Source: a virus. Taken from it: a DNA stretch of 64,000 nt. A program made the position numbers and the translations under genes. The stretch spans positions 64,001-128,000 of IMG/VR virus record IMGVR_UViG_3300045806_000063. One strand, given 5' to 3'. Positions 31,825 through 51,780 of this stretch are shown here, in pieces; positions within the stretch are counted from its first letter, which is position 1, and the number at the start of each line of letters is the position of its first letter. Under the pieces are notes generated by a model. That model was not told where the DNA came from. It worked only from the letters and a program-made list of their open reading frames with translations, and did not search any database.

Positions 31825-34800
31825 TTAACTTACGGACATATCTACCATAGGTGATATTGGTTTGATAGGTGGTGGTGGGTTAGCACTTACTGAACTATTG
31901 TTAGGTTTCGGAGCTTGCTGATTACCAATGAGAGCATTTAATGATTTAATACCATTATCGATAGATGCTAATATACCGCCACTTACATCACGTTGTTGAG
32001 CTGCTGCATCGGCAGTGGTTGTTATAGCCTTATGTAAAGGAGCTATATCCACAGGGGGAGTAGAAGAACCTGCCCCAGTATCTGTAGTGCCTGATGCTGA
32101 AGCATTTGTCGTATCAGCACTAGCCGCATTATCCGTAGCACTAGCTATGGCGGTAGGTGGCATTGGGTTAGTTCTTTTAGTTCCATCTAATCCAGCAGCT
32201 GTTGAGTCTGGTACTGGGGCAGGAGACCCAGTATCTGAACTAGGCTTAGGACTAATTCCTCCGCCAGCACTGGCCATAAACTTTTCAGCTAATGCTCCAC
32301 GAACACTCTTTTCTTTTTCGGTATCTCCAGGCCTTTCATAAAACTGAGATACAATAGCGCCAGCGTCTGCCGGACTGGTAGCATTCTTTAGTTTATCACC
32401 AGCTCTTTTTTCACTATTTTTAAGTTCCCAGTCTACGAACTGAAGTTCTTCTGCTAGACTAGCCCCTTGGATAGATTTACCAAATACCTTTTGGAATATA
32501 GCTTGTCGATCTGGGTGCCATTGACCTATCCCATATGCCTTTCCACCATCTCCCACTACATCTGGTCTAAAACCAGATTCGGTACTGATGTTAGCTGCTA
32601 TACCAGCCGCTTGTGCTGCGGGCCATCCTAATTCCATTAGTACAGAAATGGCATATTTTGCTTTATCTAATAGACCTTTCCCAATATTACCAGCGGCAGT
32701 GGTGATCTTACCAATTCCGGTTTCAATTGAAGTTGTAGCTTGTGAGGCTAATGCTGTAGCTGGTTTATAGATATTTTCACTAACATAGTTAGATGCTCTA
32801 TCGGCTAATTGTCCTACTTGATTTTTAATATTATCCCAAGTACTCGGACTCTCAGATTCGGTTTCATCTTTATTTTTTTCTTTAGATGGATCTTCCCATG
32901 GAAGTATCTCTCTTGGAGGCTTAATGTTATCTGTATTTTTAAGAGTCTTATCGTCTATCATTCTTATACCTGCACGAATCATATCTGATAAGGTATTAGC
33001 TAACTTTAAGTTGTCAGCTAAAGGTATATCTCCGAAAGGAGATTGTTGTTCACTAAATGGATTTGCACCAAGGCGAGATTCAGCATCACCGAATTGTACC
33101 ATATCTAGAAACGCTGTACGTTTTTCAGCAGTTTGGTTATTTACATATTCAAGTTCTGAACTGATTGTTCTAGCGGCTATTACATGTTTAATATATACAG
33201 GCATGAAACGATATGAGACCCATCTGGCAAACTTATTAAAAGCATTCTGATCAGTAGGGTTGTTATTAAAACGTGAAGCGTAATCAGTCCACATCTCTGG
33301 AATGGTCTTTTTAAAGTTAGGTCTACCTTCCTTGGATATAACTACATAATCTGCTATTTCAGATTCAAAGAATCTTATTGTTCTAACCGCATAACTGTTA
33401 TCTATCGGTATACCATACTGGAGATATCTTAATTTCTCCATATCGTTTAATGGTGAGAAATTCATTAGCTCAGCAGTGCCGTACCAGGCAGCAGTGCCTA
33501 CTGCCGCAACACCTAATGCTGCAAGAGTCTCTGGAAACGCCATAACAGCAGCAGTAGCTGCGCCGAATGCGGTTATTTTGGCTAGTCCTCGTATTAGCCC
33601 ACCAGCTATCCCGCCAGACTTTGCCTTACTTAATAGCCAAGTTGCGGTAGCTCCTACCACTCCAGCAGTTAGAGTACTTGGTCCATCTACCTTCTCATCC
33701 TTATCATCATTCTCTTCTGGTTTCTCTGTTTTTTCTGCAGGGGTAGAGTTAATTGATTCTTTAGCAGGTTTGTTAGATGTTAAGTCTGGCATTCCATGGT
33801 TCTTTTTTTTGCTATTTCTTTTCTTGACAATATCATTAGTTCCGCCTTCTCTATCAGCTTCCTTACTTTCCTTATCTTTGATAGGAAAGGCTTCTTGCAT
33901 ATGAGAGTATATCTTATTTAGAAGTTCCTCTACTTTAGTATCGTGACTAACTATAGTGTCTGTAAACTCAGCTACCACATTACTGATACCAGCTGAAACA
34001 GTGGAGTAAACTCCTGCTAAAGGCCTGATAGCCTTTTTCATTAAACCAGTTACTTTTTTGACTAGTTTAGTATTTTTAATACGGGTATTTAATCTAGAGA
34101 GTGCATCAATCGCTTTCATAATTAATCTAGGTAAACGAATACGCTTTCCAGTTAAAGCATCGAACACTCCAGCCTTAACTTCTTCATTACTTAAGACCTG
34201 TTTAGGTTCAGGGCCAGTAATGTCATAGACTGCTCCTCTAATGGCGTAAATGGTATTTATCACCTTACCAGTTGCAGCATCAATATAACCACCTTTCTCC
34301 ATAACCGATGCTAGTATTCGAGGTACAGTATCTCCTGCTACACATAAGTCTTTAAGTACATGGGTTTTTTCCCATAGAGATTTTAATCTAGCTATAGGCG
34401 ATTTTGCATTAGCATAATTTTTAATGCGTTGTATATTACCGTTTAACCCATGACCTTTAATGCCGGTATAAGCATCAACGATATTGTTCTTTGTGTTAAC
34501 AATGAATGGTTTTCCCTTTTCGTCAATCAGCCCTTCAAGATAATCCGCAGCACTTATAATCGTTTCGCCATGTCTATTAACTACAGCGCCTCGTATGTCA
34601 TCATAAGACTTTATTACTTTCTGTGTTATCTTGTCATAGTACTCGCCATTTAATAACCCTTCTAAACTCAATGCAGGAATGTGTTTAGTGTTTTTCTTAT
34701 AGACAGCCTTAATTGTTCTAAATGCTCCGCCTTTAGAACTAAGACTATCCATGGTTTTTGTAAATTTACCACCAGCCCATGTTGCAGCCGATTTAGCGAA

Positions 34801-37335
34801 GTCTTTACCTTTAGTGATTCCGGTGCCTAATAAACCTAACAAACTACCTATCAAACCTAAACCACTACCAGCTAATCCTACAGTCCCATCTGCTAAACCA
34901 AATAAACCACCTAATAGTTTGCGTATACTTGAGGTTTTACCACCAACTTTCTCATAAAGATTTTTACTACCTTCAGAAATCTTCGATCCTAAACCGTGGA
35001 ACATGCTTTCGCCATTAGATCCACCAGAGATATACCCTGTAGGTTTTTCTAATATCTTTTCCAGCATTGAAATTATTCTATCGGTATTACGAGATTGAGA
35101 ATTGACTATTCTATCAGCATCTTTACTAAATGATACTTGAACCTCTTTCTTCTCAGCTCTAGGTTTTTTAGATTTGTATTCTTTCTCTTCTTCAAAGGAG
35201 TCTTCCTTAGTAGATTTAGAACTTGATTTCCTGCCGGTAAATTTTCTCTTTATTTTAGCGAATAGAGAATCTTTCTTTTTAGCTTTAGCTTGAGGAGACC
35301 CTATAGATTCATCGTCCATATAGTCATTATAATCCCCCTTCTCTAATAAGGCTTTGACTAGACTCCATATGTATTCGTCGTTTACTCCGTGGTCATTGAC
35401 AATTCCCATCTGCCTTAAACTATCAGTATCTCCGACCATATAGTGAGTATTTAATATCTCTTGAGCTCCACCAAATGACTCACCTAATCGTTTAAAGTGT
35501 TTAGTAGCTTCTGAGTAGCGTTCACTAGATTCTTTATTACCAGTATGTTTCCATTTAGTTCTTCCTGTATTTAGATTTGTACCATTTTTCTCCACTCCAT
35601 AGGTGCTAGCAAAAAGATCTGCAATAGCAGGATCTATATCACTAGGAAGACTGAAGCTGTCAGCATATTCTGCTGGATCAAATTTTCCTTTCTTCGCCTC
35701 CCTAGCTAAAAATAATCCTAATTTAATTCGTTGATCAGGAGAGATCAGTGTATTATCTGGATCTAACTGTTTGATTATACCTTGTATTTCATGGTTAATA
35801 CCTGAGCTAAGGGTACCTTTAAAGTTTTTGGCTACTTCCTTATGTCTCTCTTTCATTCCTAAAAACTTTTCAGTTTGAGTAGAATATACTATTCTATCAC
35901 TCTTTTCATCTGAACCTGAAAGTATATTGTAAATGTCAGATTCTTTCTGTAAGATACGACTTAAGTACCCAGGTAATATGTCAATCAGCGTACGACGCTC
36001 TAATACACCCCAGGGAACAGCTGTAGTGGCGTCATATTCTAGTCTTCTATTAATCTGGTCATGTTGGTTAAGATCTATATTGGCAATGCGATCTAAGAAT
36101 CCCCAACCTCCTAGACCTCCAGATTCTCTCATTCTACTATATATATCTGCTGGTATAGTAGTTTTTTTCCTATCTAGCCAATTAGCACCTTTAGCAACAT
36201 TGTCTGGTAAATTAGGGAAAACTCTACCTAATGCTGAAATTATATTAGCACCATGTTTTTTTCCAAGTAGTTTGGAACTAAACGCTAAAGCCTCATCCGC
36301 AGCTCCTTCGCCCATCATTTTGTAAATGTCAGCTCCTGGCATCTGACTCATCATTTGCATCATGCCCATCTGTGAAGTTAAATCAGATATGCCAGACAGG
36401 TAATCCTTAGTCTCGTTAGATATCCCTATTTTCAGTTTACGAACTATGTCGCCTAGTCTATTTCGGCTATACTTTTGTAAACTACCGATAAGCATAGTCT
36501 TAGTCTGATTAGCAAATAGTTCATTATTGCTGACCTTTACTTCATTAGGAAGAGCCGTGTTGTACACGATATCTTTTAATTGTTCAAACTGCGCTTTGGT
36601 TGATTCATTGGTTAATGTTAACAGTTCTTTAGTTGCATAGTACTGACGGTATTGTATCTCTAATGTCTTCTTATGCCAAGCATTAAGAATAGTGTCTTGG
36701 TAACCTACTACTCGTGAAAGTAGTTTAGTTTGTGCGGAGTTATGCCCTGCACTATGTTCAAATTGCTTCTTATTAATAGCTCTATCTAATGTTGTGTGGG
36801 CTATTTGCTCTTTCTGTTGTGCATCAGCTTGTGCTTGCTCAGCTCCAAAAATACCCTGTAACATTGATGCAACATCAGAATCTTCCTTATTGTCATCATT
36901 ACTAGAGCTACTCCCGCCACTGCCGTTATCTGTTAAGGCACTTTCTAATCGGCTAGCTAGACCTTTCGGTAGTATTTTATTGGTAAATGGAGTAAAAGTC
37001 TTAAGTGCTGCTTTAGCAGATTTAAATGCAGGTTCGGCATCCCTTTTAGCCGAATAAAAGATACTAGAAACATCATTCGCTACACTCTCCAGACCTGTAT
37101 AAGCATCCGAATAGGATTTACCTAATGTGGCGAAAGCTAAACCAGCGGCAAATTTTCCAGCACCTTTTTTAGAAGCTATAGTACTCCTAAAGCTGGAAAT
37201 AGCTTTAATATGTGCTTTTCGGTTATCGACGACATCTGGGTCAAAGCCACCCAGCTCCATACTTAGATCATCATCATCCTCAAAGTTATATTCCTTCTCT
37301 TCAAGGAGGTCCTCTTTATCTCTATTTTTTGCCAT
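31825..37335 (-). CDS. Tail tape-measure/lytic protein with C-terminal phage tail lysozyme domain (phiKZ gp181-like)
   Basis: 1836 aa. AQAAGIAANISTESGF..., AYGIGQWH, ELQFVDWEL, FYERPG lysozyme motifs. Divergent from beta'-N as in phiKZ. Confidence 0.85.
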   Translation of the reverse strand: MAKNRDKEDLLEEKEYNFEDDDDLSMELGGFDPDVVDNRKAHIKAISSFRSTIASKKGAGKFAAGLAFATLGKSYSDAYTGLESVANDVSSIFYSAKRDAEPAFKSAKAALKTFTPFTNKILPKGLASRLESALTDNGSGGSSSSNDDNKEDSDVASMLQGIFGAEQAQADAQQKEQIAHTTLDRAINKKQFEHSAGHNSAQTKLLSRVVGYQDTILNAWHKKTLEIQYRQYYATKELLTLTNESTKAQFEQLKDIVYNTALPNEVKVSNNELFANQTKTMLIGSLQKYSRNRLGDIVRKLKIGISNETKDYLSGISDLTSQMGMMQMMSQMPGADIYKMMGEGAADEALAFSSKLLGKKHGANIISALGRVFPNLPDNVAKGANWLDRKKTTIPADIYSRMRESGGLGGWGFLDRIANIDLNQHDQINRRLEYDATTAVPWGVLERRTLIDILPGYLSRILQKESDIYNILSGSDEKSDRIVYSTQTEKFLGMKERHKEVAKNFKGTLSSGINHEIQGIIKQLDPDNTLISPDQRIKLGLFLAREAKKGKFDPAEYADSFSLPSDIDPAIADLFASTYGVEKNGTNLNTGRTKWKHTGNKESSERYSEATKHFKRLGESFGGAQEILNTHYMVGDTDSLRQMGIVNDHGVNDEYIWSLVKALLEKGDYNDYMDDESIGSPQAKAKKKDSLFAKIKRKFTGRKSSSKSTKEDSFEEEKEYKSKKPRAEKKEVQVSFSKDADRIVNSQSRNTDRIISMLEKILEKPTGYISGGSNGESMFHGLGSKISEGSKNLYEKVGGKTSSIRKLLGGLFGLADGTVGLAGSGLGLIGSLLGLLGTGITKGKDFAKSAATWAGGKFTKTMDSLSSKGGAFRTIKAVYKKNTKHIPALSLEGLLNGEYYDKITQKVIKSYDDIRGAVVNRHGETIISAADYLEGLIDEKGKPFIVNTKNNIVDAYTGIKGHGLNGNIQRIKNYANAKSPIARLKSLWEKTHVLKDLCVAGDTVPRILASVMEKGGYIDAATGKVINTIYAIRGAVYDITGPEPKQVLSNEEVKAGVFDALTGKRIRLPRLIMKAIDALSRLNTRIKNTKLVKKVTGLMKKAIRPLAGVYSTVSAGISNVVAEFTDTIVSHDTKVEELLNKIYSHMQEAFPIKDKESKEADREGGTNDIVKKRNSKKKNHGMPDLTSNKPAKESINSTPAEKTEKPEENDDKDEKVDGPSTLTAGVVGATATWLLSKAKSGGIAGGLIRGLAKITAFGAATAAVMAFPETLAALGVAAVGTAAWYGTAELMNFSPLNDMEKLRYLQYGIPIDNSYAVRTIRFFESEIADYVVISKEGRPNFKKTIPEMWTDYASRFNNNPTDQNAFNKFARWVSYRFMPVYIKHVIAARTISSELEYVNNQTAEKRTAFLDMVQFGDAESRLGANPFSEQQSPFGDIPLADNLKLANTLSDMIRAGIRMIDDKTLKNTDNIKPPREILPWEDPSKEKNKDETESESPSTWDNIKNQVGQLADRASNYVSENIYKPATALASQATTSIETGIGKITTAAGNIGKGLLDKAKYAISVLMELGWPAAQAAGIAANISTESGFRPDVVGDGGKAYGIGQWHPDRQAIFQKVFGKSIQGASLAEELQFVDWELKNSEKRAGDKLKNATSPADAGAIVSQFYERPGDTEKEKSVRGALAEKFMASAGGGISPKPSSDTGSPAPVPDSTAAGLDGTKRTNPMPPTAIASATDNAASADTTNASASGTTDTGAGSSTPPVDIAPLHKAITTTADAAAQQRDVSGGILASIDNGIKSLNALIGNQQAPKPNNSSVSANPPPPIKPISPMVDMSVS

Positions 37336-37360
37336 TATGTTCTCTCTCAGGAGTTAAAAT

Positions 37361-40300
37361 GTGAATATATCAAGACTACCATTTAATGTAAAACTTTTAG
37401 CCAATGACGCAAGTGCTATAGCTGGAGAGCTTGCTGTTGAAAATTTAGATATATTTAGTTCAGACAATCAATTTAACTCCGCAGGACTCTATAGTTCGGA
37501 GATATTTGGTGAGGTCGGAACTGATAAGCGTCTAAAGTCATTTGGCTTTATAGATATGCGTACTGAAATTATGCATCCTAAAATCTTTATGGAGTTGTGT
37601 AAACTCAAAGCCTTATATGAGGGTATACTCTCAGGTAGAGCTTACGCCGTATGGGATGAAAAAGCTAAAGATTTTGTTGGATCAAATGTAATCGACGGGC
37701 AAACTGGTTACAGTTTTTTCATGAATAAATTTTTAGAAATTATTCATGCTACAAACGATTCCAATCTTAGAGAACTCAGGATAATGCTCCTGGATAAATC
37801 TAAAGACAAATGCATGTATCGCTACTATCAAGTTATCCCTGCAGGACTTAGGGATATTGAACTAAATACACAGGAGAGGCCTAAGGAAGATGAGATTAAC
37901 ACCATCTACCGTAAATTAATTAGGGTCAGTAATACGATCTCTATCCACAACCGAAAATCTAATGATCCAATTTTAGATAACCCAAGAGGGCTATTACAGA
38001 CTGCAGCTAATAACATCTATGCACACCTTGAAGCTATCTTCTCTGGTAAACGTGGATGGTATCTAGATAAAGTAATAGCTCGTAATGTTCATGGTAGTAC
38101 TAGGAATGTTGCTACAGCAATGGACCCCTCTCCTGTACGTGTAGGGTCTAAAGAAGCATTAACCATAGACCACACCATCATTGGATTACATCAGTTCATG
38201 AAGGGCGCTGTTGAGCTTACAATCCATGATATACGCAAAGGGCCTATGCGGGATGTTATTGAATTCATGCCATCTATGGCATATGTCGTAGATAGTAAAA
38301 CTCTGCAAAGGAAAACAATTTTACCCAGTAGGTTTACAGTAGATAACTGGGGAACTGAAGAAGGTATTGAAAAATTAATCAATGGATTTGAAAAACCATA
38401 CGCTAGACATAAACCTATCTTGGTAGATGGGGATTATGCTGCATTACTGTATCGTGATACTAAACATTATAGAGTCTTTTATGATATAACTGACCTACCC
38501 AATGGTTTCTCCAAAAGCAATGTAAAGCCTATAACCTGGGCTGAAATGTTTTACCTATCTGTATATGAAAGTGCCGCTAAAGTAGGAGGGTATAACACTC
38601 GGTATCCTGTCGCTGGAATGGGTAGTTGTTATTGTAGTAAGTTATTTTTAGAGACTACTGTTAAATCAGATAGCTTAATTGAACTGGATGATAAGTGGAA
38701 TCCTACTAACAAAGATATCACACCTATTCATATGCCTCAAGCTGGTTTAGCATTCTTAGATAGTTCATCAGTACATATCAGTAAAGAACCAGACCTAGGA
38801 CTAGATCATGATGGTGATACATTCTCATTACCTATTGTGGTTTCAAAAGAAGCTATAAAAGAAGTAGATGATTATCTTAACTCACCTGAAGCATTTTTAA
38901 ATGAATCTGGAGGATTAAGATATGGTATTAATAACAAGATATCAGTAATGGTCTTAGAGAATTTTACCAGAGGATATTTCCCTAGCAGTCATGGGTTAGA
39001 GTCCTTAAATGGTACACCTGAAATCAGTCCAGCTACTAAAAAGGACTCAGATGATCTGGTTAAGTTAGCAATAACAATGATGGAAGAAACCCCATTCTTA
39101 TACCTTGGCTGGGATAGCGAAGACCAAATGGCACGACATGAGAAAAAACAACAAAAGAGGTTTATCGAATCAGCGTCAGGCGATATGCTATATTTTACCT
39201 TAAAACTTAAAGGTAAAATAATCGGTTTTATACGAGCCGCTATTAACAGTAAAAAGAAATCAGCTAATTTTGCAGTTGGTGTACTTAAAGAATATCATGG
39301 ACGTGGATATGGTAAGATGCTAGTCTTATACTTAATTCAAGTTCTTAAGGATAAGAAAGTTAACACTCTGACACTCAGTGTAGATAAGAATAACACAGTA
39401 GCATTAGGGTTATATCAGCGATTAGGATTTGTAGTAATAAGCGATTATACTTTTGAACAAACTCCAATGTATAGAATGTCTCTAGACTTAACCGATTATC
39501 ACTCATTTGGTATAGAGTCTTTATTTGGTGATGATGCAGAAGATATAGAAATCTGTGGGGTTGCTGATTGTACTGAGGTTATTGACTCTAACCATTATGA
39601 CATTAAAGGAGAAATAACAAAAGCCGTTCATGAAGCTGCTACCTCTCCTTTAAACACTTTAGATATTCCATCTGAAGCTATGTATAAAGCTGGTAACTAT
39701 AAAAAACCTTTAATTGATTTACATGGGTTAAAGATTAGAATAGAAAACCCACAAGGGTCAGTTAGATCTGGAACTGACGCAGATGGTAATGCGTGGTCTA
39801 ATCCAATCATGCATCATTATGGATATATCCTAGGAACTGATGGAGCCGATAACGACCCACTAGATGTATTCATTGGTGAACATCCCGAATCTCAAAGTGT
39901 CTTTATTATAAACCAAGTAGATCCTAAGACCCGTGAGTTTGACGAGCATAAGGTAATGCTAGGATTCAATTCAGCACTATCTGCTGAAGAAGGATACCTT
40001 AAGAACTATGAACTTGGTTGGAATGGATTAGATTCAATCGTAGAGACTGATATAGATGGTCTTAAAGATCTCATCAGCATAAATGAGTTTGATGATGAAA
40101 TAACCGACAACGATTTAGATGACTTTGGGTTAGAATCATTAGGATCAGGTCTACTAATCAGAGCTGCAACTATTGATGATAAAGAAGTTTTAAAATCCAT
40201 GCTAATTGAGGAAGCAATAGATTCTTATCTATATGAACCTGACTGCCTCTATCTAGCATTTAACAATAATGAATTGATTGGTTTTATCGGATGTGAAGTA

Positions 40301-41005
40301 AATCCATTTAATTCTAAAGCAGTTATGTCAATTGGAATCTCCGAATCTAATTTAGCACAAGGGGTATCTCTTATTCTAGTTGACACACTTGTTCAGTCCT
40401 TGATGGATAGAAAAGTGCGACATTTAATAACAGCCATACCATCCACATCTCCTGATAGCTTAGCTCAGTTTGAGTACTTAGGTTTCAGAATCATAAAACA
40501 CGATACCATTAATAACTTATATGCATTACAACTCGATATACAAAAACCAACTGCTTTAACTGTTTCAGTAAATAGTTCAGGATGTAACTATGGGTTAGAG
40601 TCTCTTAATAGTTCTGAGTATTATTACCATGGCAGCCCTAAGAGAAATGTCTTAACCTTACAACCAAACCCGTCAAGAGTACTTAATGGAGAGACAGCAG
40701 TATTTGCAGGAGAATACTGGACGGCTATAGCGTACACCAGATCTTGGTCTGATGAAGACTTTATACAAGGAACTATAAATGGCGCTCCATATATGAAGGA
40801 ACGATATGAGGGAGCATTCAAGAAAGTCTATGATGGTGGAGGCTGGGTGTATGCTGTTAGTAAATCCGATTTTCATCATGATCCAAGATTAACTAATTTT
40901 GAATATATCTCAGAACATCCTGTTAGAATTATAGGATCTGAATACATAAAAGACCCTATTCAAAAACTTAAAGAATTAGGAGTCAAACTTCAGTATTACA
41001 AATAA
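37361..41005 (+). CDS. rpoC: Virion RNAP beta' N-terminal subunit (gp180-like) fused to GNAT, InPase-like, GNAT and ART-like domains
   Basis: aa 1-547: GLYSSEIFG, VIPAGLRD, GKRG...RNV, RYPV, DHDGD. Remainder: four extra domains joined by G[LI]ES linkers at 38993, 39509, 40127 and 40592. Confidence 0.88.
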   Translation: MNISRLPFNVKLLANDASAIAGELAVENLDIFSSDNQFNSAGLYSSEIFGEVGTDKRLKSFGFIDMRTEIMHPKIFMELCKLKALYEGILSGRAYAVWDEKAKDFVGSNVIDGQTGYSFFMNKFLEIIHATNDSNLRELRIMLLDKSKDKCMYRYYQVIPAGLRDIELNTQERPKEDEINTIYRKLIRVSNTISIHNRKSNDPILDNPRGLLQTAANNIYAHLEAIFSGKRGWYLDKVIARNVHGSTRNVATAMDPSPVRVGSKEALTIDHTIIGLHQFMKGAVELTIHDIRKGPMRDVIEFMPSMAYVVDSKTLQRKTILPSRFTVDNWGTEEGIEKLINGFEKPYARHKPILVDGDYAALLYRDTKHYRVFYDITDLPNGFSKSNVKPITWAEMFYLSVYESAAKVGGYNTRYPVAGMGSCYCSKLFLETTVKSDSLIELDDKWNPTNKDITPIHMPQAGLAFLDSSSVHISKEPDLGLDHDGDTFSLPIVVSKEAIKEVDDYLNSPEAFLNESGGLRYGINNKISVMVLENFTRGYFPSSHGLESLNGTPEISPATKKDSDDLVKLAITMMEETPFLYLGWDSEDQMARHEKKQQKRFIESASGDMLYFTLKLKGKIIGFIRAAINSKKKSANFAVGVLKEYHGRGYGKMLVLYLIQVLKDKKVNTLTLSVDKNNTVALGLYQRLGFVVISDYTFEQTPMYRMSLDLTDYHSFGIESLFGDDAEDIEICGVADCTEVIDSNHYDIKGEITKAVHEAATSPLNTLDIPSEAMYKAGNYKKPLIDLHGLKIRIENPQGSVRSGTDADGNAWSNPIMHHYGYILGTDGADNDPLDVFIGEHPESQSVFIINQVDPKTREFDEHKVMLGFNSALSAEEGYLKNYELGWNGLDSIVETDIDGLKDLISINEFDDEITDNDLDDFGLESLGSGLLIRAATIDDKEVLKSMLIEEAIDSYLYEPDCLYLAFNNNELIGFIGCEVNPFNSKAVMSIGISESNLAQGVSLILVDTLVQSLMDRKVRHLITAIPSTSPDSLAQFEYLGFRIIKHDTINNLYALQLDIQKPTALTVSVNSSGCNYGLESLNSSEYYYHGSPKRNVLTLQPNPSRVLNGETAVFAGEYWTAIAYTRSWSDEDFIQGTINGAPYMKERYEGAFKKVYDGGGWVYAVSKSDFHHDPRLTNFEYISEHPVRIIGSEYIKDPIQKLKELGVKLQYYK

Positions 41006-41013
41006 CCTCTACC

Positions 41014-41046
41014 TATCACCATATCTGCTAAGTAGATATGGTGATA
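41014..41046. terminator. Hairpin terminator
   Basis: tatcaccatatct-gctaagt-agatatggtgata. Confidence 0.8.
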
Positions 41047-41074
41047 ACTTTTCTTATATTCAAATAATTTTCAT

Positions 41075-41158
41075 TTATATATCATCTAGATGAGATTACT
41101 AAATTAGTATTTCTTAAGCAGCTATTCTTTTAATAGCAAATTAGATTTGGAGAATGAA
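41075..41158 (+). promoter_or_regulatory. Conserved cassette leader copy B
   Basis: atatatcatctagatgagattactaaat...ttcttaagcagctattcttttaatagcaaa...ggag. Confidence 0.85.
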
Positions 41159-41524
41159 ATGAAAGCAATTACAGTGCCAGGTACAATGGCGTCCATGTTA
41201 TCCATCCTGGATTCCCAATTCGGGAACGAAGGTGAGAAGAATTACCGTGCCTCTGAGGAGGTACGAGTGGTAACTGTGGCTAGTAAACCGCTGAAAAATA
41301 GCACGGTAGTCAAGTTCCTGGTACAGTCCACTAAGGACTACCAGTTAGTGGGAGCGGCACAAGCTACTCTCACAGAAGATGGTAAGAACTACGACTACAC
41401 GAGGCTAGTCTGTACCAATGCAATATACGACCCTAGCGGCTTAGGCTTCTCACTAGTAGGGTTCAGTGAGGAGGACCTAGAAGGGTGGGATCATTTTGAG
41501 GTGGAGCCACTGGCTATCCTCTAA
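41159..41524 (+). CDS. Hypothetical cassette gene B (start probably ATG 41159 rather than TTG 41147)
   Basis: GGAG RBS 6 nt before the ATG; GC-richer. Confidence 0.75.
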   Translation: MKAITVPGTMASMLSILDSQFGNEGEKNYRASEEVRVVTVASKPLKNSTVVKFLVQSTKDYQLVGAAQATLTEDGKNYDYTRLVCTNAIYDPSGLGFSLVGFSEEDLEGWDHFEVEPLAIL

Positions 41525-41536
41525 GTAGGACTTTGT

Positions 41537-41568
41537 GGAGTGAGGAGAGCCTAGGCTCTCCTCACTCC
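41537..41568. terminator. Perfect 32-bp palindrome, CCTAGG centre
   Basis: ggagtgaggagagcct|aggctctcctcactcc. Confidence 0.9.
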
Positions 41569-41580
41569 CATCCTGTTTAA

Positions 41581-41620
41581 TTATTTTTTTTCTTTTAAAT
41601 TGTAAACATATATTATCTGA
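41581..41620 (+). promoter_or_regulatory. 40-bp repeated early promoter block
   Basis: 39/40 identical to 54620-54659; contains aaacatatattatct. Confidence 0.8.
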
Positions 41621-41658
41621 TAGCTATAACGTAATTAAATTTATTTGGAGAATAAAGT

Positions 41659-42060
41659 ATGAAAACTAAACAATGTGAACAAAACCCATTCGCCGTTTGG
41701 TTAAGGCTATTCAGAAACCAACGCGGTTACAGTCTGGAAAGACTAAGTTGTGAAGTTGAGTGTGGTATAAGCTATCTTTCGAAAGTAGAATTAGGTAAAG
41801 TCCCTACTCCTTTCTGGTTACCAGACCGCTTGCTAGAACTATACCCACTTCTAAGTCTTAATGAAGAGTTTAAAAAAGCATTAATGTTAGGAGACTTTAC
41901 TACTCACACTAAAGGCAATGGTCAGACAAGAGAAATGCATATTAATAAATCAACTGTTATACGACTGTTTAATGGAGTAATTGATAGTCTGAGTGATCAA
42001 GGTCTAATTGATTTATGTAATCTTTTACTAAAGTTCCAACCTACTGTTACGGAGAAATGA
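41659..42060 (+). CDS. XRE-family HTH regulator
   Basis: LRLFRNQRGYSLERLSCEVECGISYLSKVELGK. Confidence 0.85.
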   Translation: MKTKQCEQNPFAVWLRLFRNQRGYSLERLSCEVECGISYLSKVELGKVPTPFWLPDRLLELYPLLSLNEEFKKALMLGDFTTHTKGNGQTREMHINKSTVIRLFNGVIDSLSDQGLIDLCNLLLKFQPTVTEK

Positions 42061-42440
42061 TGTCAATGAATAGCAAATTAATATCCCCCTTTGGGAAAAG
42101 GTTACGGAAGTTTAGAATTGATACTGGGATTACTCAAGCCGAAATGGCTAAAGCATTAGGGTATTCATCTTCCTTTTTGTCAAATCTAGAATTGGGTAAA
42201 GTTAATGCAACCAAGGAAATGATAGACAAGTTACTAACAACATTCGAAAGTTTACGACCATTCGAATATCAGTTAAGAAAGTTGGCATCCGAATCTCAAG
42301 CCAGAATAGATATTCACACATACAACCTATCCCTCGATAGAAGAAAATTACTGAGCTTAATGGCTGCAAACATAACGCATCTGTCAGATTTTCAAGTAAA
42401 GAGATTTATAGATTCTTTAAACCACGTTACGGAAAAGTAA
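42057..42440 (+). CDS. XRE-family HTH regulator (paralog)
   Basis: FGKRLRKFRIDTGITQAEMAKALGYSSSFLSNLELGK; shares the C-terminal VTEK. Confidence 0.88.
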   Translation: MMSMNSKLISPFGKRLRKFRIDTGITQAEMAKALGYSSSFLSNLELGKVNATKEMIDKLLTTFESLRPFEYQLRKLASESQARIDIHTYNLSLDRRKLLSLMAANITHLSDFQVKRFIDSLNHVTEK

Positions 42441-42446
42441 AAGTAA

Positions 42447-43130
42447 ATGAACACCACATCCCCTGATGTTAATATCCATAAATTAGCCTTAAATATAGAG
42501 GCTGCTGTTAAAGAAATATCATTAATGGAGAAAGAACTTAGAACTATGAAGAAAGATGGGATCTTAATCCCAGATAAACTGAATCAGTTAATTGATTCCT
42601 CAAAAAAGAGACTGAAGAGACAACGCAGAGAAGTCAATAGAATGATCTGTATAACTGATTTCCAGAAGGGGTTAGAAAGATATAAAGAATTTTTCAGCTT
42701 TACCTGTTGGGAACCAACTCCTTTTGCTATGGTGTCTCGTGAGGTTATCGAGTCTACGTCTTTGGAAGTAGGTGAGTTAGTTTTTATAATATACCCACGA
42801 GATGCGTTGAGTTCTGAAGTTCCTGTTGAGTTCGGTAAAGGACATTTTTGTCTAGTAGTAAAATGGGATTTTACCGACACACATGCAATCATTGAAGACT
42901 CGTTTACTGGAAGACGATTTGAAGTTGATAAGCGTTACATTTATCCTAAATCCACGATATGTAATCAGATAATAAATCTTTTCACATTACAAAGCTGTCT
43001 AGCGAAAGAAGATCTTGCTCAGCAGACAGATACTCTCTGGGATGCCGGAGGATCTATCATTAGATATGGTAAATTAATTAACGATAGACGAATATCGGCA
43101 ATGTGTGAAAGTTTCACTAAAATCAAATAG
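42447..43130 (+). CDS. Hypothetical protein
   Basis: 227-aa ORF, N-terminal coiled coil. Confidence 0.7.
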   Translation: MNTTSPDVNIHKLALNIEAAVKEISLMEKELRTMKKDGILIPDKLNQLIDSSKKRLKRQRREVNRMICITDFQKGLERYKEFFSFTCWEPTPFAMVSREVIESTSLEVGELVFIIYPRDALSSEVPVEFGKGHFCLVVKWDFTDTHAIIEDSFTGRRFEVDKRYIYPKSTICNQIINLFTLQSCLAKEDLAQQTDTLWDAGGSIIRYGKLINDRRISAMCESFTKIK

Positions 43131-43163
43131 CAATAACTTATTTAATATAACTGGAGTAAAAAA

Positions 43164-44129
43164 ATGAATAAAACTGAACAACTAATTTGGATCGATATCG
43201 AAACTACTGGATTTGATCCAAGATCAGATAAAATACTGGAAATTGCAGTAATAGTAACTGCACCTGATTTAATCGTAGACGATAGTAAGGTATTCACTTC
43301 TGCTATCAGAAAGGCTAAGTTTCAGTTAAAAGAAATGACAGAATGGTCCACTAAGCAGCATACTGAAAGCGGTCTCATAGCTAAGTGTCTAGATAATGCA
43401 ACACCAGTTATGACGGAAGTGGAAGCTCAGATACTTGAGTTCTTAAGTGTTCATACGGAAAAGGGCAAATGTCCAATAGCGGGCAGTAGTGTTTGGTTTG
43501 ATAAAGCTTTTCTCCAGTATCAAATGCCGTCACTGTATGACTGGTTACATTATCGGATAATCGATGTGTCCTCCATCATGCGTTTCATCAGAATGTATGA
43601 TGAACTCCCTCCAAGTAAAAAACTAAAACCGCACACCGCATTAGCTGATTTACAAGAAAGTATTGGGGAATTTAGAGAGTATAGAGATTCTCTATTTCCA
43701 AACTGGGCAGGGGGGTTATCAGTGCCCGACCTTTATCCACAATCCGCTACTGCAGTAGCGGCAAGGTATAAGAGAGAAGAAGAGGAGTCGTGGAAAAAAG
43801 AACATAACTTTAAGAAAGTTTTCACTGGATTCTTTGATGCTCCGCCTCGTGGATTTAAAGGTATAGATCTTAAAGATTCAGAGGTGCATAAAGAGGAAGA
43901 GGTGGTGCAAGATTCCTCTCAAACTATTTTCGATATACGCACTGATAGATTGTTAACGACCACGATGGTTTGTAACAAATTAGAAATAGTTAGAAGTACC
44001 CTGTACAACTGGATGAATGACTCCCGTAAGGAGTTTCCAAAGCCTATCGATAAGGCTGTACTAGGTAATCAGTGGTCAGAAAAGACGATTGATGAATGGG
44101 TTATGAAGATGAAAGGGGTAAATAAGTAA
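43164..44129 (+). CDS. orn: Oligoribonuclease (DEDDh) fused to a C-terminal AlpA-like HTH
   Basis: LIWIDIETTG.D...ILEIA, IAGSSVWFDKAFL, HYRIIDVSS, HTALADLQES. C-terminus LLTTTMVCNKLEIVRSTLYNWM...FPKP...W....IDEW. Confidence 0.88.
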   Translation: MNKTEQLIWIDIETTGFDPRSDKILEIAVIVTAPDLIVDDSKVFTSAIRKAKFQLKEMTEWSTKQHTESGLIAKCLDNATPVMTEVEAQILEFLSVHTEKGKCPIAGSSVWFDKAFLQYQMPSLYDWLHYRIIDVSSIMRFIRMYDELPPSKKLKPHTALADLQESIGEFREYRDSLFPNWAGGLSVPDLYPQSATAVAARYKREEEESWKKEHNFKKVFTGFFDAPPRGFKGIDLKDSEVHKEEEVVQDSSQTIFDIRTDRLLTTTMVCNKLEIVRSTLYNWMNDSRKEFPKPIDKAVLGNQWSEKTIDEWVMKMKGVNK

Positions 44130-44665
44130 TGGAAAAAACAAATGTAGTATCCTTATCCGAGGCAAGATTTAACAAACGACTAGATAAGGTTCTGGAAAAA
44201 GGTGAAGTCTTTATTGGGATCGAAGAGAATAATGGTAATATAGGTAAATTAGTCCTACCATTTATCATTGACCTATTGTCAATTACTGATCCGGTAAACG
44301 TTGAACTGGATGACATGGTCTTTGGATATAGTCATATTTCTTGTGTGAATCTTAGTACTGGAGAAATTACAGATGCTGATAGTTTCGTTACATCCGGAAT
44401 CTCATACACTTTATGTGAAAAATATACTGGAGCAGATACAGAATACCGTATTTCATTTAGACCAACGATGCCGGATGATCTGTCTCAGGCTGTCTCAAAA
44501 TTAAGAGTAGCTGAACTATTGAATCTTAATATCGTCATCCATGATAAACGATGCATTATTGTTAAATCATTTGAATGGAGTACAAATAAACTAGACGGTA
44601 CAGAAGAGTGGTTTTATGAAAAAGGCACGGGAATGTCTTTAATCAGGAAGTTTCTACCCTCGTAA
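44129..44665 (+). CDS. Hypothetical protein
   Basis: Coupled ORF. Confidence 0.7.
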   Translation: MEKTNVVSLSEARFNKRLDKVLEKGEVFIGIEENNGNIGKLVLPFIIDLLSITDPVNVELDDMVFGYSHISCVNLSTGEITDADSFVTSGISYTLCEKYTGADTEYRISFRPTMPDDLSQAVSKLRVAELLNLNIVIHDKRCIIVKSFEWSTNKLDGTEEWFYEKGTGMSLIRKFLPS

Positions 44666-44743
44666 ACTATCAGGTAGTAATAATAAAAGAGTTGAAGGTA
44701 TGTTATGAAGCACTATTTCATACCTTCAACCTGAGAACTAAAT

Positions 44744-44986
44744 ATGAAAATATCTGACTACGACGTTCGTCTGACAATTCATTTTGTAGTGGATGTGTAT
44801 GTCAGACGTTTTAATAACGGTGAGTTATCAGAACATGATAAAATGGTGCATTATAATTTAGCTAGAGGGAAACTTAGTGGTATTGAACTACTTATTCAGA
44901 ATAGTAAAGCACTGACTGAAATAGTTACGGATGCTAAACTTCAATTACTGAAATTAAAACCATTGATTAAGAGTAGAAAGACATGA
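44744..44986 (+). CDS. Hypothetical protein
   Basis: 80-aa ORF coupled to the next gene. Confidence 0.6.
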   Translation: MKISDYDVRLTIHFVVDVYVRRFNNGELSEHDKMVHYNLARGKLSGIELLIQNSKALTEIVTDAKLQLLKLKPLIKSRKT

Positions 44987-45378
44987 TACAATATTTAGAA
45001 GGAGTAAAATATGAAATCCCAGTACCATTAACAACTGAAGTACTGGATGTAGTTTTAACTGATACATTTCTTGAATTTGCCCATATGGGGATGATTGGAA
45101 TAGCGCCGCTAAATGAAGAAGATACTGCGGCATTATTCATCCTTTATAGATGGCCTATGGAAACTGCACAATCGTTAGTTAGAGAAGTGCAGTTAAGGAG
45201 ACCTGGTGTTTCTTTGATGGTAATCAATCTATCAGACGGTATGTTATTGGACTTACAGAAAGAACCAGTAACTGTAAGTGTAGACACCATGCCGTACACT
45301 GTAAGAATTCAGTATACTGAAACTGCTAAGAGTGGTAAAAAACGTGTTATGATTGAATCTGCACCTGGTCTACATTAA
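44983..45378 (+). CDS. Hypothetical protein
   Basis: 131-aa ORF ending before a palindrome. Confidence 0.65.
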   Translation: MIQYLEGVKYEIPVPLTTEVLDVVLTDTFLEFAHMGMIGIAPLNEEDTAALFILYRWPMETAQSLVREVQLRRPGVSLMVINLSDGMLLDLQKEPVTVSVDTMPYTVRIQYTETAKSGKKRVMIESAPGLH

Positions 45379-45387
45379 AATCCGCTA

Positions 45388-45429
45388 TATCATATCCACT
45401 CAGAGCTTAAGCTCTGAGTGGATATGATA
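45388..45429. terminator. Perfect 42-bp palindrome, CTTAAG centre
   Basis: tatcatatccactcagagctt|aagctctgagtggatatgata. Confidence 0.9.
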
Positions 45430-45485
45430 GTCGTTATTTTTTCTTATCTTTTATATGAATCGTTTGTAATGTTAATTAATCTGGA

Positions 45486-48400
45486 GTGGTAATGAGTTCT
45501 CTACTAAAAATAAAAGAATTTGAAACAAGATTTACTGTAAATCAAATAACGAAAATATCAGGATCATTCAAAAAATTTACACCTGATGTAATGTTTTTAC
45601 CTGAGAATGCAATGATTCATTTCATTGCTGAGACTAGCACTGAACTAGGTATTGATAAAAGTTTTTCACTACTGAGAAACTACTACAATGCTACGACCAT
45701 TTACCATGTTAAAGAACTTAAAGCAGTAGTAGGCTCTCCTTCTGCAGTTAGAGGGACTACAATTAAGCAACTGATAATTGCATACCATCGTACTCATCTA
45801 GAGATTAAAGAGTTATCTAATTTGGATAGATCTGTGTCTCTTGAAAAGAATCCAATCGTTGTAAACTATGCATTGTTAGCTAGAGTGTATAGTTATCCAA
45901 AACACGTCTTAAGCGAATATCATGAGTGGATGAATATACGAACCACTATGTGGGATACGATAGCTCAGATTGGTAGTAGGCGAGAACATTTTATTCGTTT
46001 TAAATTACCACTTCATCTTCAAACTAAGAATGAGTTAAACAAGTGTTTATCAGGGTTTAATTCTAGTGACTTAAACAACTTCCACACTAAAGATGATTTT
46101 GATTTAATGGAGTTATGGCAGATACTACATCCTCAAATTGAAACTCCAGTAACAAAGATTAGTGACTCTATATTGAGTAATGTATTTTTGACCTTTATTG
46201 AATCTGGGGTAATAGCTATAATTTCTTTAGGGGAGTTAATAGAATGGGCAGTAGAGGACTATGAGACTGCTACGAATAGCTTTCATAAATTCTTGGATAC
46301 CCTGATAGGGTTAAGAAGTCCTATTGATCTGAAGCAATTAGAATCTGATTCTGCTGACTTAGCTGATCATGTTGATGTTGATAGTAAAATAGTAAAGCTG
46401 ATTAATGCACATGGTGAAGTAGGAAATATATCCCATGGTGAACAGAAAGCTTTATTGAAATTATCAGAAAGATATAAAACCATAAAAGATCCAGCAGGTT
46501 CTGGTTTTACAGTAGAAGAATTAACGAAAGGTCCTCAAAATAAACCAATACTGAGAGAAGCTTTAATAAATGATCCTGCTGGTGTTATTAATCAGGATAT
46601 GCTTTATTCAAGTGTAGATTACAAAGAAAAAGCATATGTAAAAGATGTAATGCATAAAAATATGCTGCAAATGATTCTAAAATTACAGGATGGCGGCATC
46701 ATCATTAAGGATATAAAACTTAACAAAAGAATAGATGCAGCTAACAAACAGTTTGAATATACAGTAGCAGTGACTCCTGTAGCCGGGGAAGCTAGTACAT
46801 TGCCAATAACTATACCGGTTATAGAACCTGACGGAAGTTTCCTGCTGGGGGCTACTAAGTATAGGTTAGATACTCAGAAAGGTGAAATGCCGGTAGTAAA
46901 GACTAAAGCGAACACAGTAGCCTTAACTAGCTACTATAGTAAAATCTTTATAATAAGAACTGAATCTGCAAACCTAAACTATAGCAGATGGATTAGCAAA
47001 ATACTATTAAATCAGAGTGAAGCTGGAGGAGTGGTAACTGACTTAATTCATGGGATATCACACATAACCGATAAAGTCCCTAGAGGTTACTCAGCTATTG
47101 GTGAGAACTATAAGAGTTTCACAGTAAAAGGACAGTATGCTTTTACTTTTGCTTACTCTGACATTAACACTAATTTTACACCAGAAGAAGTGACTACCTT
47201 TGAACAGATGAAACTCGTACCTTGCGGTAGAGATTTAAAATCAAAATCACCTATTGGGATGGACGCTGAAGGTAAAATATATTTGGTTGTTATCAAAGAT
47301 AAAAATGATGGTATGATTTATTTGGGAACTATTCCAAATTTAATTAGTGAAGATCTTGGTAATGGTCCTAATGAGTTTACTGAGTTTGGTATGTTTGGTA
47401 AAAGGGTACCTATCATCTTAGCTTTAATGATGAGGGATGGTCTTGAAAAGACTCTAAAAAATTTACATGTAGAGTATAGCATAAATCCAGTTGCATCAAC
47501 CAGGATAGTTTTTGACCCTACTAAGCTTATCTTAAAGTGTAAAGATTCCACATACATCATAGACATAACTAACCCTTTCAGACGATTAATAGTTTCAGGG
47601 TTATATGTGTTAAGGGATATAAGTACACGATATAAAGCTATCGACTTTAACCATACTCAGTCCTATGGTTCAATATTCTCTGCTATTGGGTTAAGCTCCC
47701 ACTATATTAAAGAAATTGATTTAATGTGGGATATGTTTATAGATCCAATAACTGAAGAACTTTTAACAGTGACAAAAGAACCTACCAATTTTAAAGACCT
47801 GCTATTACATGCTAGCGACTTGTTAATAGATGACCATATACCTGATGTAACTAGTGTTAGGAATAAAGGTTATGAACGTATATGCGGAATGGTATATCGT
47901 GAACTCGTATTAGCCATGCGCGAGCATAGAGGCAAAGGATCATCAGTTGGTTCAAAGTTTACACTAAATCCTAATGCGATAATGATGTCGATACAACAAG
48001 ATCAAACACAGACATTAGTCGAGGAATCAAACCCTATACATAACCTGAAAGAAAAGGAATCAGTAACATGTGTTGGTGCAGGGGGACGAAATACTGATAC
48101 GATGATGCATAAGGATCGTGGGTTCACTAAACATGATTTTGGTATTTTATCTACTGATACTCCTGACTCTGGAAAGGTAGGGGTTCGTGGAAGTTTAGCA
48201 CCTGATGCAAACTATACTTCGGTGTATGGTACTGTGGAGGCTCTAGATCCTGCGACAGCTAAAAACCCAGTACAAGTATTAAGTACCTCAATGTTATTAG
48301 CTCCTGGAGTTACCCATGACGATGGTAGACGTGGCAACTTTATAGGTATTCAAAATAGTCACACAGTAGGATGTGAAAATTATGATGCTTTACCTTATTG

Positions 48401-49448
48401 TACAGGATATGAAGAGGTAGTAGCAGGTAGAACCGATGAACTCTTTGCAATAAAAGCTAAAGAAGATGGAACTGTTGAAAAGGTAACTGCTTCCATGTTA
48501 ACCGTTATCTTTAAAGGAGCAGGAAAGGTAAACTATGAAATCGGTGTACGACACGGTGTTGCTTCTGGTAAAGTTACTCCTCATAATAGAGTAACTGATC
48601 TTAGAGCTGGTGATAAATTTAACAAGAATGATATTTTGATATGGGATTCAGGTTTCTTTGAAAGAAGTTTAATAAATCCTAACAACGTAGTTCATAAACA
48701 AGGGATCTTAGCTAGGTTTGTTTTTGTTGACAATGCTTTAACCAATGAAGACGGCTGTGTTATCACTGATAAGTTTGCATCTAAGATATATACCATGAAA
48801 ACTAAGTTACATGCCATTATCATAGATTTTGATATGATAGTCCATAATTTAGTCACTGTCGGAACAGAAGTCACTCCTGAAACCATTCTATGTACCCTGG
48901 AGGGGTTTGTTCACGATGCTTTACAAACTAAAGATCCTGAGGCTATAAAGGCTTTGTCTGACATTAGTGCTGGTAATCCTAAAGCAAAAGTCTATGGTAA
49001 AATAACTAATATGGATATGGTTTACTATGGAAAGATAGAGGATATGCATTCTAGTATGCAGGAATTAGCTACCAAGTTTGATAACAGTAGGGCTAAACGT
49101 GTGAATACTTTTAACCTTGACGAAGCTAAGACTGGAAAGATCTCAAGTTCGATAAGGGTAGGTGGTATTAAACTTGAACCAAATCAAATGGCTATCAGGA
49201 TCTATATCGATGATATACTGGATATGAATACTGGTGATAAAGGTGTAGTGTGTCATCAATTGAAGACTACGATATCTTCAGTCACTCCAGATCCAATAAC
49301 AACTGAAGATGGACAGGAATTAGATGGCGAGTTTGCTTACATGTCAATTAGTAACCGAATCGTCGAGTCTGTTATTATAGTTGGAATGGCGTGTGAGATA
49401 CTGGCTGCTGGTACTAAAAATATGGTAAAGATTTATAAATCACATTAA
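45486..49448 (+). CDS. rpoB: Virion RNAP beta N-terminal subunit (phiKZ gp178-like)
   Basis: TPDSGKVG, HDDGRRGNFIGIQNSH, EDGCVI, GDK..VCHQLK motifs of RpoB. Confidence 0.92.
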   Translation: MVMSSLLKIKEFETRFTVNQITKISGSFKKFTPDVMFLPENAMIHFIAETSTELGIDKSFSLLRNYYNATTIYHVKELKAVVGSPSAVRGTTIKQLIIAYHRTHLEIKELSNLDRSVSLEKNPIVVNYALLARVYSYPKHVLSEYHEWMNIRTTMWDTIAQIGSRREHFIRFKLPLHLQTKNELNKCLSGFNSSDLNNFHTKDDFDLMELWQILHPQIETPVTKISDSILSNVFLTFIESGVIAIISLGELIEWAVEDYETATNSFHKFLDTLIGLRSPIDLKQLESDSADLADHVDVDSKIVKLINAHGEVGNISHGEQKALLKLSERYKTIKDPAGSGFTVEELTKGPQNKPILREALINDPAGVINQDMLYSSVDYKEKAYVKDVMHKNMLQMILKLQDGGIIIKDIKLNKRIDAANKQFEYTVAVTPVAGEASTLPITIPVIEPDGSFLLGATKYRLDTQKGEMPVVKTKANTVALTSYYSKIFIIRTESANLNYSRWISKILLNQSEAGGVVTDLIHGISHITDKVPRGYSAIGENYKSFTVKGQYAFTFAYSDINTNFTPEEVTTFEQMKLVPCGRDLKSKSPIGMDAEGKIYLVVIKDKNDGMIYLGTIPNLISEDLGNGPNEFTEFGMFGKRVPIILALMMRDGLEKTLKNLHVEYSINPVASTRIVFDPTKLILKCKDSTYIIDITNPFRRLIVSGLYVLRDISTRYKAIDFNHTQSYGSIFSAIGLSSHYIKEIDLMWDMFIDPITEELLTVTKEPTNFKDLLLHASDLLIDDHIPDVTSVRNKGYERICGMVYRELVLAMREHRGKGSSVGSKFTLNPNAIMMSIQQDQTQTLVEESNPIHNLKEKESVTCVGAGGRNTDTMMHKDRGFTKHDFGILSTDTPDSGKVGVRGSLAPDANYTSVYGTVEALDPATAKNPVQVLSTSMLLAPGVTHDDGRRGNFIGIQNSHTVGCENYDALPYCTGYEEVVAGRTDELFAIKAKEDGTVEKVTASMLTVIFKGAGKVNYEIGVRHGVASGKVTPHNRVTDLRAGDKFNKNDILIWDSGFFERSLINPNNVVHKQGILARFVFVDNALTNEDGCVITDKFASKIYTMKTKLHAIIIDFDMIVHNLVTVGTEVTPETILCTLEGFVHDALQTKDPEAIKALSDISAGNPKAKVYGKITNMDMVYYGKIEDMHSSMQELATKFDNSRAKRVNTFNLDEAKTGKISSSIRVGGIKLEPNQMAIRIYIDDILDMNTGDKGVVCHQLKTTISSVTPDPITTEDGQELDGEFAYMSISNRIVESVIIVGMACEILAAGTKNMVKIYKSH

Positions 49449-51070: not shown

Positions 51071-51780
51071 TGGATATTACTCATTTAAAACGTAACCCTG
51101 ATAAAGTTAAAGAGGCTATGAAGGAGGTAGGGGATTCATTAATCGCTGTAAAGCCTTTAAAGATATATCTGCCGGAACATTATGGTAACATAGGGTTCTT
51201 TAACTTAGGTGAAGTAACTACTATGGTAGCTGTCTGGGGTGTTGTAGTAGATGACTACTATGAGTTAAGTGTTGCTGCCACCATAGGCATCACTGCGCCA
51301 TCTAATGTTACTGTAGTGACAATAAATGGCTCTAAGTATTATGAACTCAGTTATGAGAAACATGATAAAATCTGGGTAAACTTAAACATGGTAAAGGTGA
51401 ATACATTATTCCTGATACTATATCAGGAATTTATAGCTAAAGCTAACATCCCATGGTACATGAGCTATGAACAAATTGGACTCATCAGTGAGACTGCTCA
51501 GTTACATGCTGATGCTAATCTAGGTACTGACTCTGCTATTATAGAACTGATGATAAGTGCTACAGCTAGACAGCATAAAGATAAAAAGGAATTTATTCGA
51601 CATCAAGCTAATGTCTCACCTGATACCGTACCAGCGTATATACCTTTAACTTCGGTAGCCTTCCAAGTTACTAATACCTTTGCTAAATTAGCCGGTGGTT
51701 ATTTTAATGAAGGTATGACTAGCGCATTAGTGTATCCAACAACAACCAATGAACCAATTGAAACAATTCTTAGAGAATGA
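51070..51780 (+). CDS. phiKZ gp176-like protein (reported virion-RNAP-associated subunit in relatives)
   Basis: MDITHLKRNPDKV..., PWYMSYE, KLAGGYFNEGMTSALV..., IETILR; directly upstream region of the protease. Confidence 0.6.
   Translation: MDITHLKRNPDKVKEAMKEVGDSLIAVKPLKIYLPEHYGNIGFFNLGEVTTMVAVWGVVVDDYYELSVAATIGITAPSNVTVVTINGSKYYELSYEKHDKIWVNLNMVKVNTLFLILYQEFIAKANIPWYMSYEQIGLISETAQLHADANLGTDSAIIELMISATARQHKDKKEFIRHQANVSPDTVPAYIPLTSVAFQVTNTFAKLAGGYFNEGMTSALVYPTTTNEPIETILRE

Follow-up and report, generated by a model that had tools for sequence, protein, structure and literature searches.

A virion RNA polymerase subunit with four appended modules

In a 64,000-nucleotide stretch of viral DNA (positions 64,001 to 128,000 of IMG/VR record IMGVR_UViG_3300045806_000063, hereafter the window), a single open reading frame (ORF) at 37361-41005 on the plus strand encodes a 1214-residue, 136 kDa precursor, in which the N-terminal part of the beta' subunit (beta'-N) of a phiKZ-type virion RNA polymerase (vRNAP) is followed by four further modules, each entered through the motif G-[LI]-E-S. 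Our comparative analysis points to a probable piggyback system, in which the modules would be packaged on the vRNAP and the cargo released by the head protease of the phage. At the level of sequence, the observation is real and well supported by comparative evidence.

The ORF is a single stop-free frame with a GTG start, preceded at 7 nt by AGGAG. Its core (37361-39001, residues 1-547, predicted 61.7 kDa) is the ortholog of phiKZ gp180 and SPN3US gp240: PHROG 2986, the gp180 family, matched residues 2-536 over model positions 2-538 of 539 (E 3e-162), SPN3US gp240 matched the core with E 9e-89, and the catalytic D-x-D-G-D lies at residues 482-486; a PDB sequence search with the core returned no relatives. 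GC and GC3 are even across the core and module segments. The uninterrupted frame, the end of the core near residue 547 and the boundary coordinates, as claimed in an earlier reading of this DNA (the original prediction), all agree with the ORF translation and the phrog_2986 alignment. The gene stands among orthologs of SPN3US gp238, gp241, gp244 and gp245, and the non-virion beta'-N is encoded by a separate gene elsewhere in the genome (phrog_2987 at C1:154689). Orthology to gp240, synteny and the separate non-virion gene therefore identify the ORF as the virion subunit, in line with the identity first assigned to it.

The linker and the head maturation protease

The same motif occurs at every boundary, exactly where it had been placed: G545-L-E/S548 (38993-39004), G717-I-E/S720 (39509-39520), G923-L-E/S926 (40127-40138) and G1078-L-E/S1081 (40592-40603), all on the plus strand, with the slash marking the predicted cut. 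These four copies compare with 0.075 expected by composition (Poisson P ~1e-6). Leucine comes next at 4/4 sites, the sequences flanking the motif have nothing in common, and no copy was found inside the cargo modules, the sites falling at boundaries only.

Strict G-[LI]-E-S was counted across the whole genome with this ORF set apart. Eight other copies were found, seven of which lie in propeptide regions of head proteins: the major capsid protein (residues 41 and 168), the portal ortholog (residues 168, 207 and 287) and an internal head protein (residues 54 and 111). Orthologs of known cleaved head proteins thus hold 7 copies in 3,276 residues, as against 1 in 52,899 residues elsewhere (P 2e-8). 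The S80 prohead protease, encoded at 53337-54125 on the plus strand (PF20034, E 1e-48), has an intact triad of H76, S150 and D175. Its G-L-E201 aligns exactly with E203 of SPN3US gp245, a mapped self-cut, and its G-N-E230 with E234 of the same protein. Comparison with the other cut positions mapped in SPN3US (PMC10052503, Table 2) showed that the gp45 cut at E20 aligns exactly with GNE-9 here and that the portal cut at E161 falls close to GLE-170; for the capsid and the gp53/gp54 propeptides the alignment was too poor for exact mapping. Homology of the major capsid protein to cultured phages begins at residues 159-169, at the E170 site. The SPN3US protease favours serine at P1', the residue found there at 4/4 linker sites. 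Because of the genome-wide distribution, the SPN3US alignments and the intact triad, the linker is best regarded as this phage's best version of its head-protease motif; the linkers that the original prediction called head-protease-type carry the genome's own motif.

At the DNA level, the 11 bases GGGTTAGARTC recur at 3/4 joints (38993, 40127 and 40592), with 3 occurrences in the window against 0.03 expected. Codons vary at the other GLES sites of the genome, unlike at these three joints, and the chance of 3/4 joints having the same codons, calculated post hoc, is ~3e-4. This pattern suggests that linker DNA was copied or recombined between joints. It might also be read as a recombination or cassette site, of which the peptide motif would be a by-product and whose modules might be produced from internal starts. 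Yet the same peptide motif, written in other codons, marks the head proteins; around three joints (from some 30 nt ahead of the joint to 120 nt beyond it) no in-frame start codons were reported, nor were any at module starts, and a promoter scan gave promoter-like sites at chance level. Since the DNA likeness is more simply a record of linker copying, we hold this explanation to be very improbable.

The eighth copy outside the ORF lies at residues 81-84 of a gp181/gp239-like tail protein with a lysozyme domain, encoded divergently at 31825-37335 on the minus strand; it could be a cut site or a chance occurrence, and SPN3US gp239 has A-Y-E at residue 76. Small proteins encoded at 16814-17638 on the minus strand of the window and at C1:10629-10976 of the genome (G000) bear an early GLE/G (residue 22) or GVE/S (residue 17), and are probable further substrates of the head protease.

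Variation of the cargo among gp180 homologues

Several hundred gp180 homologues were compared, and their tree was built with FastTree with SH-like support. Most of them end near residue 540. A single clade (support 100) unites the closest six, with cargo in 5/5 members with a readable C-terminus, and the sister lineages of this clade stop near residue 540 without cargo. Against the order GNAT, InPase, GNAT and module 4 in the protein studied here, P0002 carries an InPase plus two unknown modules (at joints with GLA, SLE and GLE), L009 an InPase, in exon 2, after GTE and GNE, L099/L103 an InPase, a GNAT and a HAD phosphatase after GLE, GTE and GNE, and P0009 an 85-residue module after GNE and GLE; the InPase and the first GNAT are homologous across the clade, but their order differs. 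In L001, the next gene (L001:5683-6402) encodes a standalone protein of 239 residues that is paralogous to P0002's last cargo module and has the same leader as that cargo, rich in cysteine and closing with GLE/S; it is a likely source of a module of this kind. This suggests that modules arise as ordinary head proteins whose propeptide can be cleaved off, and are chained later on. More distant homologues, on separate branches, bear unrelated cargo after ALE, SVE, AKE, SNE, KTE or GTE, in one case at the N-terminus. The comparison proposed with the original prediction thus gave relatives that end at about residue 540 or bear different cargo behind G-x-E-like sites.

The cultured Ralstonia phages RP12, RP31, FLC1-1B and FLC4-3B have a gp180 of 664-671 residues in which one or two A-x-E sites precede a ParB-like tail (PF08857, E 0.001) (L106:12001-13995, L107:9010-11025 and L108:26300-28294). 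In RP31 ORF39 (664 residues) AVE/S and ALE/G follow the core, and this cargo-extended protein is present in virions (PMC5468394, Table S3). RP12 and RP31 are the distant carriers in which the phage's own head-protein motif was compared with the linker, and A/G-x-E sites were found also in their protease, capsid and portal. Like the ORF studied here, RP12 ORF42, RP31 ORF39 and FLC gp43 are extended gp180 orthologs, but the extension follows A-x-E/S and is a single ParB-like module instead of four; in the accessible parts of their descriptions they are annotated as RNA polymerase subunit only, with the extension unremarked.

Origin in a single metagenomic record raises the question of an assembly artefact joining separate genes. 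The ORF, however, stays in frame across 1214 codons with the motif at every joint, relatives in independent Logan, JGI and ENA assemblies have the same design, and the cultured RP12, RP31 and FLC phages have extended subunits, and an artefact is hardly credible.

Some long homologues were rejected as cargo cases, namely P0003-P0007 and P0265, whose extra length is due to intein insertions, and P0246, which runs on for ~310 residues resembling additional beta' sequence, as in a fused vRNAP subunit. P0162 (L016:574-1080) has a 170-residue N-terminal module (phrog_10766) ending in SLE/S immediately before the RNA polymerase core. In many relatives (L009:3266-3814, L099:4402-5027, L010, L100 and L101) an intron or intein interrupts the gp180 D-x-D-G-D, and one gp180 intron holds an ORF resembling a NUMOD1 homing endonuclease; the genome studied here has neither intron nor intein. 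As such insertions make gene callers split gp180, cargo encoded in exon 2 is hidden.

Release, tethering or removal of the cargo

Several observations weigh against release by the head protease. The sites lie within the chain, on either side of whole domains, which departs from the terminal propeptides of S80 substrates; the mapped SPN3US cuts all trim terminal propeptides, and vRNAP subunits are absent from the nine substrates. The first junction of P0002 is GLA and not GLE. A related GNAT is joined to the core without G-x-E/S in P0018, P0019, P0032, P0034 and P0037, mid-distance relatives on three branches, and these five fusions indicate that a tethered GNAT is evidently tolerated. Finally, the mass listed for RP31 ORF39 is 74 kDa, which corresponds to the uncut protein and not to the 62 kDa expected after cutting (PMC5468394, Table S3). 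In the same table the major capsid stands at 75 kDa (full length 76.8 kDa) and the portal ortholog at 100 kDa (full length 102.7 kDa), whereas A-x-E sites in RP31 predict a capsid of ~64 kDa and a portal of 71-80 kDa. As capsid and portal also appear near precursor size, the table discriminates poorly, and its 74 kDa entry weighs only weakly.

The GLA junction, the site-less GNAT fusions and the full-length RP31 protein would all suit a tethered multi-enzyme subunit, packaged and injected for the most part uncut, whose modules act on the vRNAP and whose G-L-E-S sites are propeptide relics or are cut in part only. Attached modules would remove pyrophosphate beside the active site and acetylate a nearby partner. 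An HD domain on the vRNAP subunit of a Bacillus phage (PMC7598289) and fluorescent gp180 fusions that stay assembled are also in keeping with tethering. It does not readily explain a perfect motif at 4/4 boundaries whose flanks are unrelated, nor the retention of G-x-E at most joints of the relatives despite reshuffling, and the RP31 sizes speak for it only as far as those of the apparently uncut capsid and portal allow. We consider tethering unlikely, although it deserves attention.

Cutting might also serve to discard the tail. In that case the tail would do its work in the producing cell, in whose cytoplasm new vRNAP accumulates, and would then be trimmed off as a C-terminal propeptide and leave the prohead, the core alone being injected. 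Maturation of giant phages does remove propeptides of 111-254 residues, gp180 is cytoplasmic through late infection, and T4 Alt is shortened at its C-terminus (PMC5694885). The lack of sites within the modules, however, means that cutting would yield intact domains and not fragments, polyvalent proteins packaged in virions are the main setting of this family of InPase domains (PMC5512222), and a cytoplasmic job would not need fusion to the vRNAP. Removal of the tail before injection seems improbable.

The cargo modules

For the Pfam searches, modules were delimited at the G-[LI]-E-S motifs; all are encoded on the plus strand. GNAT1 (39002-39517, residues 548-719, 19.6 kDa; PF00583, E 2e-18) has a canonical acetyl-CoA loop and shares 36% identity with the GNAT cargo of the relative L103. 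The InPase module, of the type found in polyvalent proteins (39518-40135, residues 720-925, 22.7 kDa; PF18823, E 1e-50), is common to the relatives P0002, L009 and L103; many further viral contigs carry InPase domains 40-56% identical to it, and it also matches DarB-like and other large virion proteins. In GNAT2 (40136-40600, residues 926-1080, 17.0 kDa; PF00583, E 2e-5, above the cut-off) the fold match holds but the acetyl-CoA loop is degenerate and departs from the canonical form. Among the modules compared, GNAT2 matches GNAT1 best (E 1e-10), and it is probably a diverged copy of GNAT1 that may be inactive. A 707-residue ORF at 24471-26594 of the window, which has no Pfam match, gave two weak matches to GNAT2 (E 0.003).

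Module 4 (40601-41005, residues 1081-1214, 134 residues, 15.5 kDa) is DUF6886-like by a weak match (E 0.047), and its look-alikes in Atlas are unnamed standalone proteins of 127-140 residues and DUF6886 clusters. No homologues were found by word search, tblastn (phages and plasmids) or pattern scans, the Arr-ms profile did not match, and a PDB sequence search returned no relatives. The AlphaFold single-sequence model of the module (pLDDT 37.5) and that of the whole cargo (pLDDT 34) were too low in confidence for use, and Foldseek returned nothing for module 4. An ADP-ribosyltransferase (ART) fold is suspected for it. The GNAT, InPase and GNAT labels of the original prediction thus hold in Pfam, and its ART-like label for the last module comes down to motif resemblance.

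A proposed route into the host cell

In the favoured sequence of packaging and release, the gene would be expressed late as the 136 kDa precursor, with residues 1-547 forming the obligatory virion beta'-N subunit. The precursor would assemble into the vRNAP and enter the prohead as any gp180 does, at ~10 copies per particle, judging from phiKZ. In that phage, gp180 with sfCherry2 at its C-terminus enters the particle and is co-injected, and the early phage infection vesicle is where the vRNAP acts (bioRxiv 10.1101/2024.03.24.586471); mCherry-gp180 assembles into the vRNAP, with ~10 vRNAP per virion (PMC10612078). As engineered fusions are packaged and injected, hitch-hiking on the gp180 subunit works, and packaging of the natural cargo via the vRNAP is very likely. 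The S80 protease at 53337 would then cut after the glutamate of G-[LI]-E/S, giving a subunit of normal length and four free proteins of 15-23 kDa; cuts at all four sites, with products of 61.7, 19.6, 22.7, 17.0 and 15.5 kDa, can be expected with good confidence. The freed modules would remain in the head, be co-injected with the DNA and most likely reach the early phage infection vesicle together with the vRNAP.

As the vRNAP ends up in a membrane vesicle on delivery, the InPase may serve the phage's early transcription, speculatively by clearing pyrophosphate or a nucleotide-like substrate; a role in early transcription was proposed for such domains by Iyer et al. (PMC5512222). GNAT1 might acetylate a phage or host target, for which the protein-acetylating phage enzyme Rac offers a parallel (PMC7824862), and GNAT2 and module 4 might add further putative activities. 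A host-modifying or anti-defence role of the cargo is possible. In evolution, the gp180 C-terminus may have acted as an evolvable dock for modules already equipped with a cleavable propeptide. Such modules would come, go and change places there, perhaps through recombination between the short stretches of linker DNA that joints have in common. The idea that the phage loads enzymes by fusing them to a packaged subunit is partly supported, by the virion identity of that subunit, the phage's own motif, the cargo of relatives and the engineered fusions; the cutting is predicted, and the ART label and the host-modifying or anti-defence role are putative. We lean, with some reserve, towards the broader proposition that nucleus-forming phages have repeatedly and independently made the gp180 terminus a modular, protease-released dock, and that the rapidly reshuffled enzymes of this clade are injected at fixed stoichiometry into the early vesicle, where they would aid transcription in the first minutes or disarm host defence ahead of all phage gene expression.

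Comparison with known systems

The closest conceptual precedent is that of polyvalent proteins (Iyer et al. 2017, PMC5512222), which like this ORF join many unrelated conflict domains in one chain and for which packaging, injection and proteolytic release were proposed, the N4 virion RNA polymerase itself lying within one of them (PMC5512222). The InPase and GNAT modules are drawn from the same domain pool, so that the ORF carries at least two such domains. It differs in its carrier, a subunit of the multisubunit phiKZ-type vRNAP, and in the predicted release by the head maturation protease at a repeated motif. Pfam and PHROG searches gave no match to an embedded MPTase peptidase or an N4-like single-subunit vRNAP in the ORF, where module 4 alone is an unassigned stretch long enough for either. 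Such embedded domains are common, although not universal, in polyvalent proteins.

Substrates of S80 proteases (phiKZ gp175, SPN3US gp245) and of T4 gp21 (Alt, IPI-III) share with this ORF an S/A/G-x-E site followed by serine and a protease of the same family encoded nearby, and they are packaged in the head and injected, as is predicted for the ORF. In those systems a terminal propeptide is cut from single proteins, whereas here internal cuts are predicted to free several folded enzymes; the targeting signal would be a whole essential subunit instead of the short leader (capsid targeting sequence) of T4. The phiKZ gp180 and SPN3US gp240 proteins are the same subunit in the same gene neighbourhood, but these cultured models end near residue 540, in contrast to the natural four-module extension of 670 residues with putative cut sites. 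In the Bacillus jumbo phages AR9, PBS1 and BpSp an HD enzyme domain is fused to the vRNAP beta-C subunit (PMC7598289, PMC7824862), that is, a single N-terminal domain on another subunit, with no protease linker described.

Open-literature searches, with subscription papers mostly outside their scope, gave no account of the gp180-cargo architecture, in agreement with the novelty claimed for it. What appears new is the use of an essential subunit of a multisubunit RNA polymerase as carrier, combined with putative internal head-protease sites for whole enzymes. Little is settled about how phiKZ-like heads select their proteins, and such phages have few known injected enzymes. A carrier-plus-cut-site design would answer the packaging question for one route and would make it possible to search mis-annotated 'long RNAP subunits' as a catalogue of phage enzymes of the first minutes of infection. 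The cultured Ralstonia phages are a ready test system for the design, which might also offer a way of loading chosen proteins into jumbo-phage particles in the laboratory.

Genome and gene neighbourhood

The source record is a 181 kb viral genome with direct terminal repeats, which encodes chimallin, PhuZ and two RNA polymerase sets (a partial phrog_4795 match with E 3e-13, phrog_4733 and RNA polymerase matches). By this gene content, the phage is a phiKZ-like, nucleus-forming member of the Chimalliviridae. Its gp180 shows only ~40% identity to that of any cultured phage. At 181 kb the genome falls below the 200 kb jumbo line and is small for a nucleus-forming phage.

Among the other vRNAP genes, that of the beta-N subunit (gp178/gp241 ortholog) lies at 45486-49448 on the plus strand, without G-[LI]-E-S and with no cargo seen, and that of the beta' C-terminal subunit (gp244 ortholog, by homology) at 51070-51780 on the plus strand. 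The divergent tail gene begins merely 25 nt from the start of the ORF, and an out-of-frame ATG-TGA at 37359-37364 overlaps its GTG start. A terminator-like hairpin (41014-41046, plus strand) directly follows the stop codon. The beta'-N and beta-N genes are neighbours in SPN3US, in RP12 and in most relatives, but here about eight small genes (41014-45485) lie between them.

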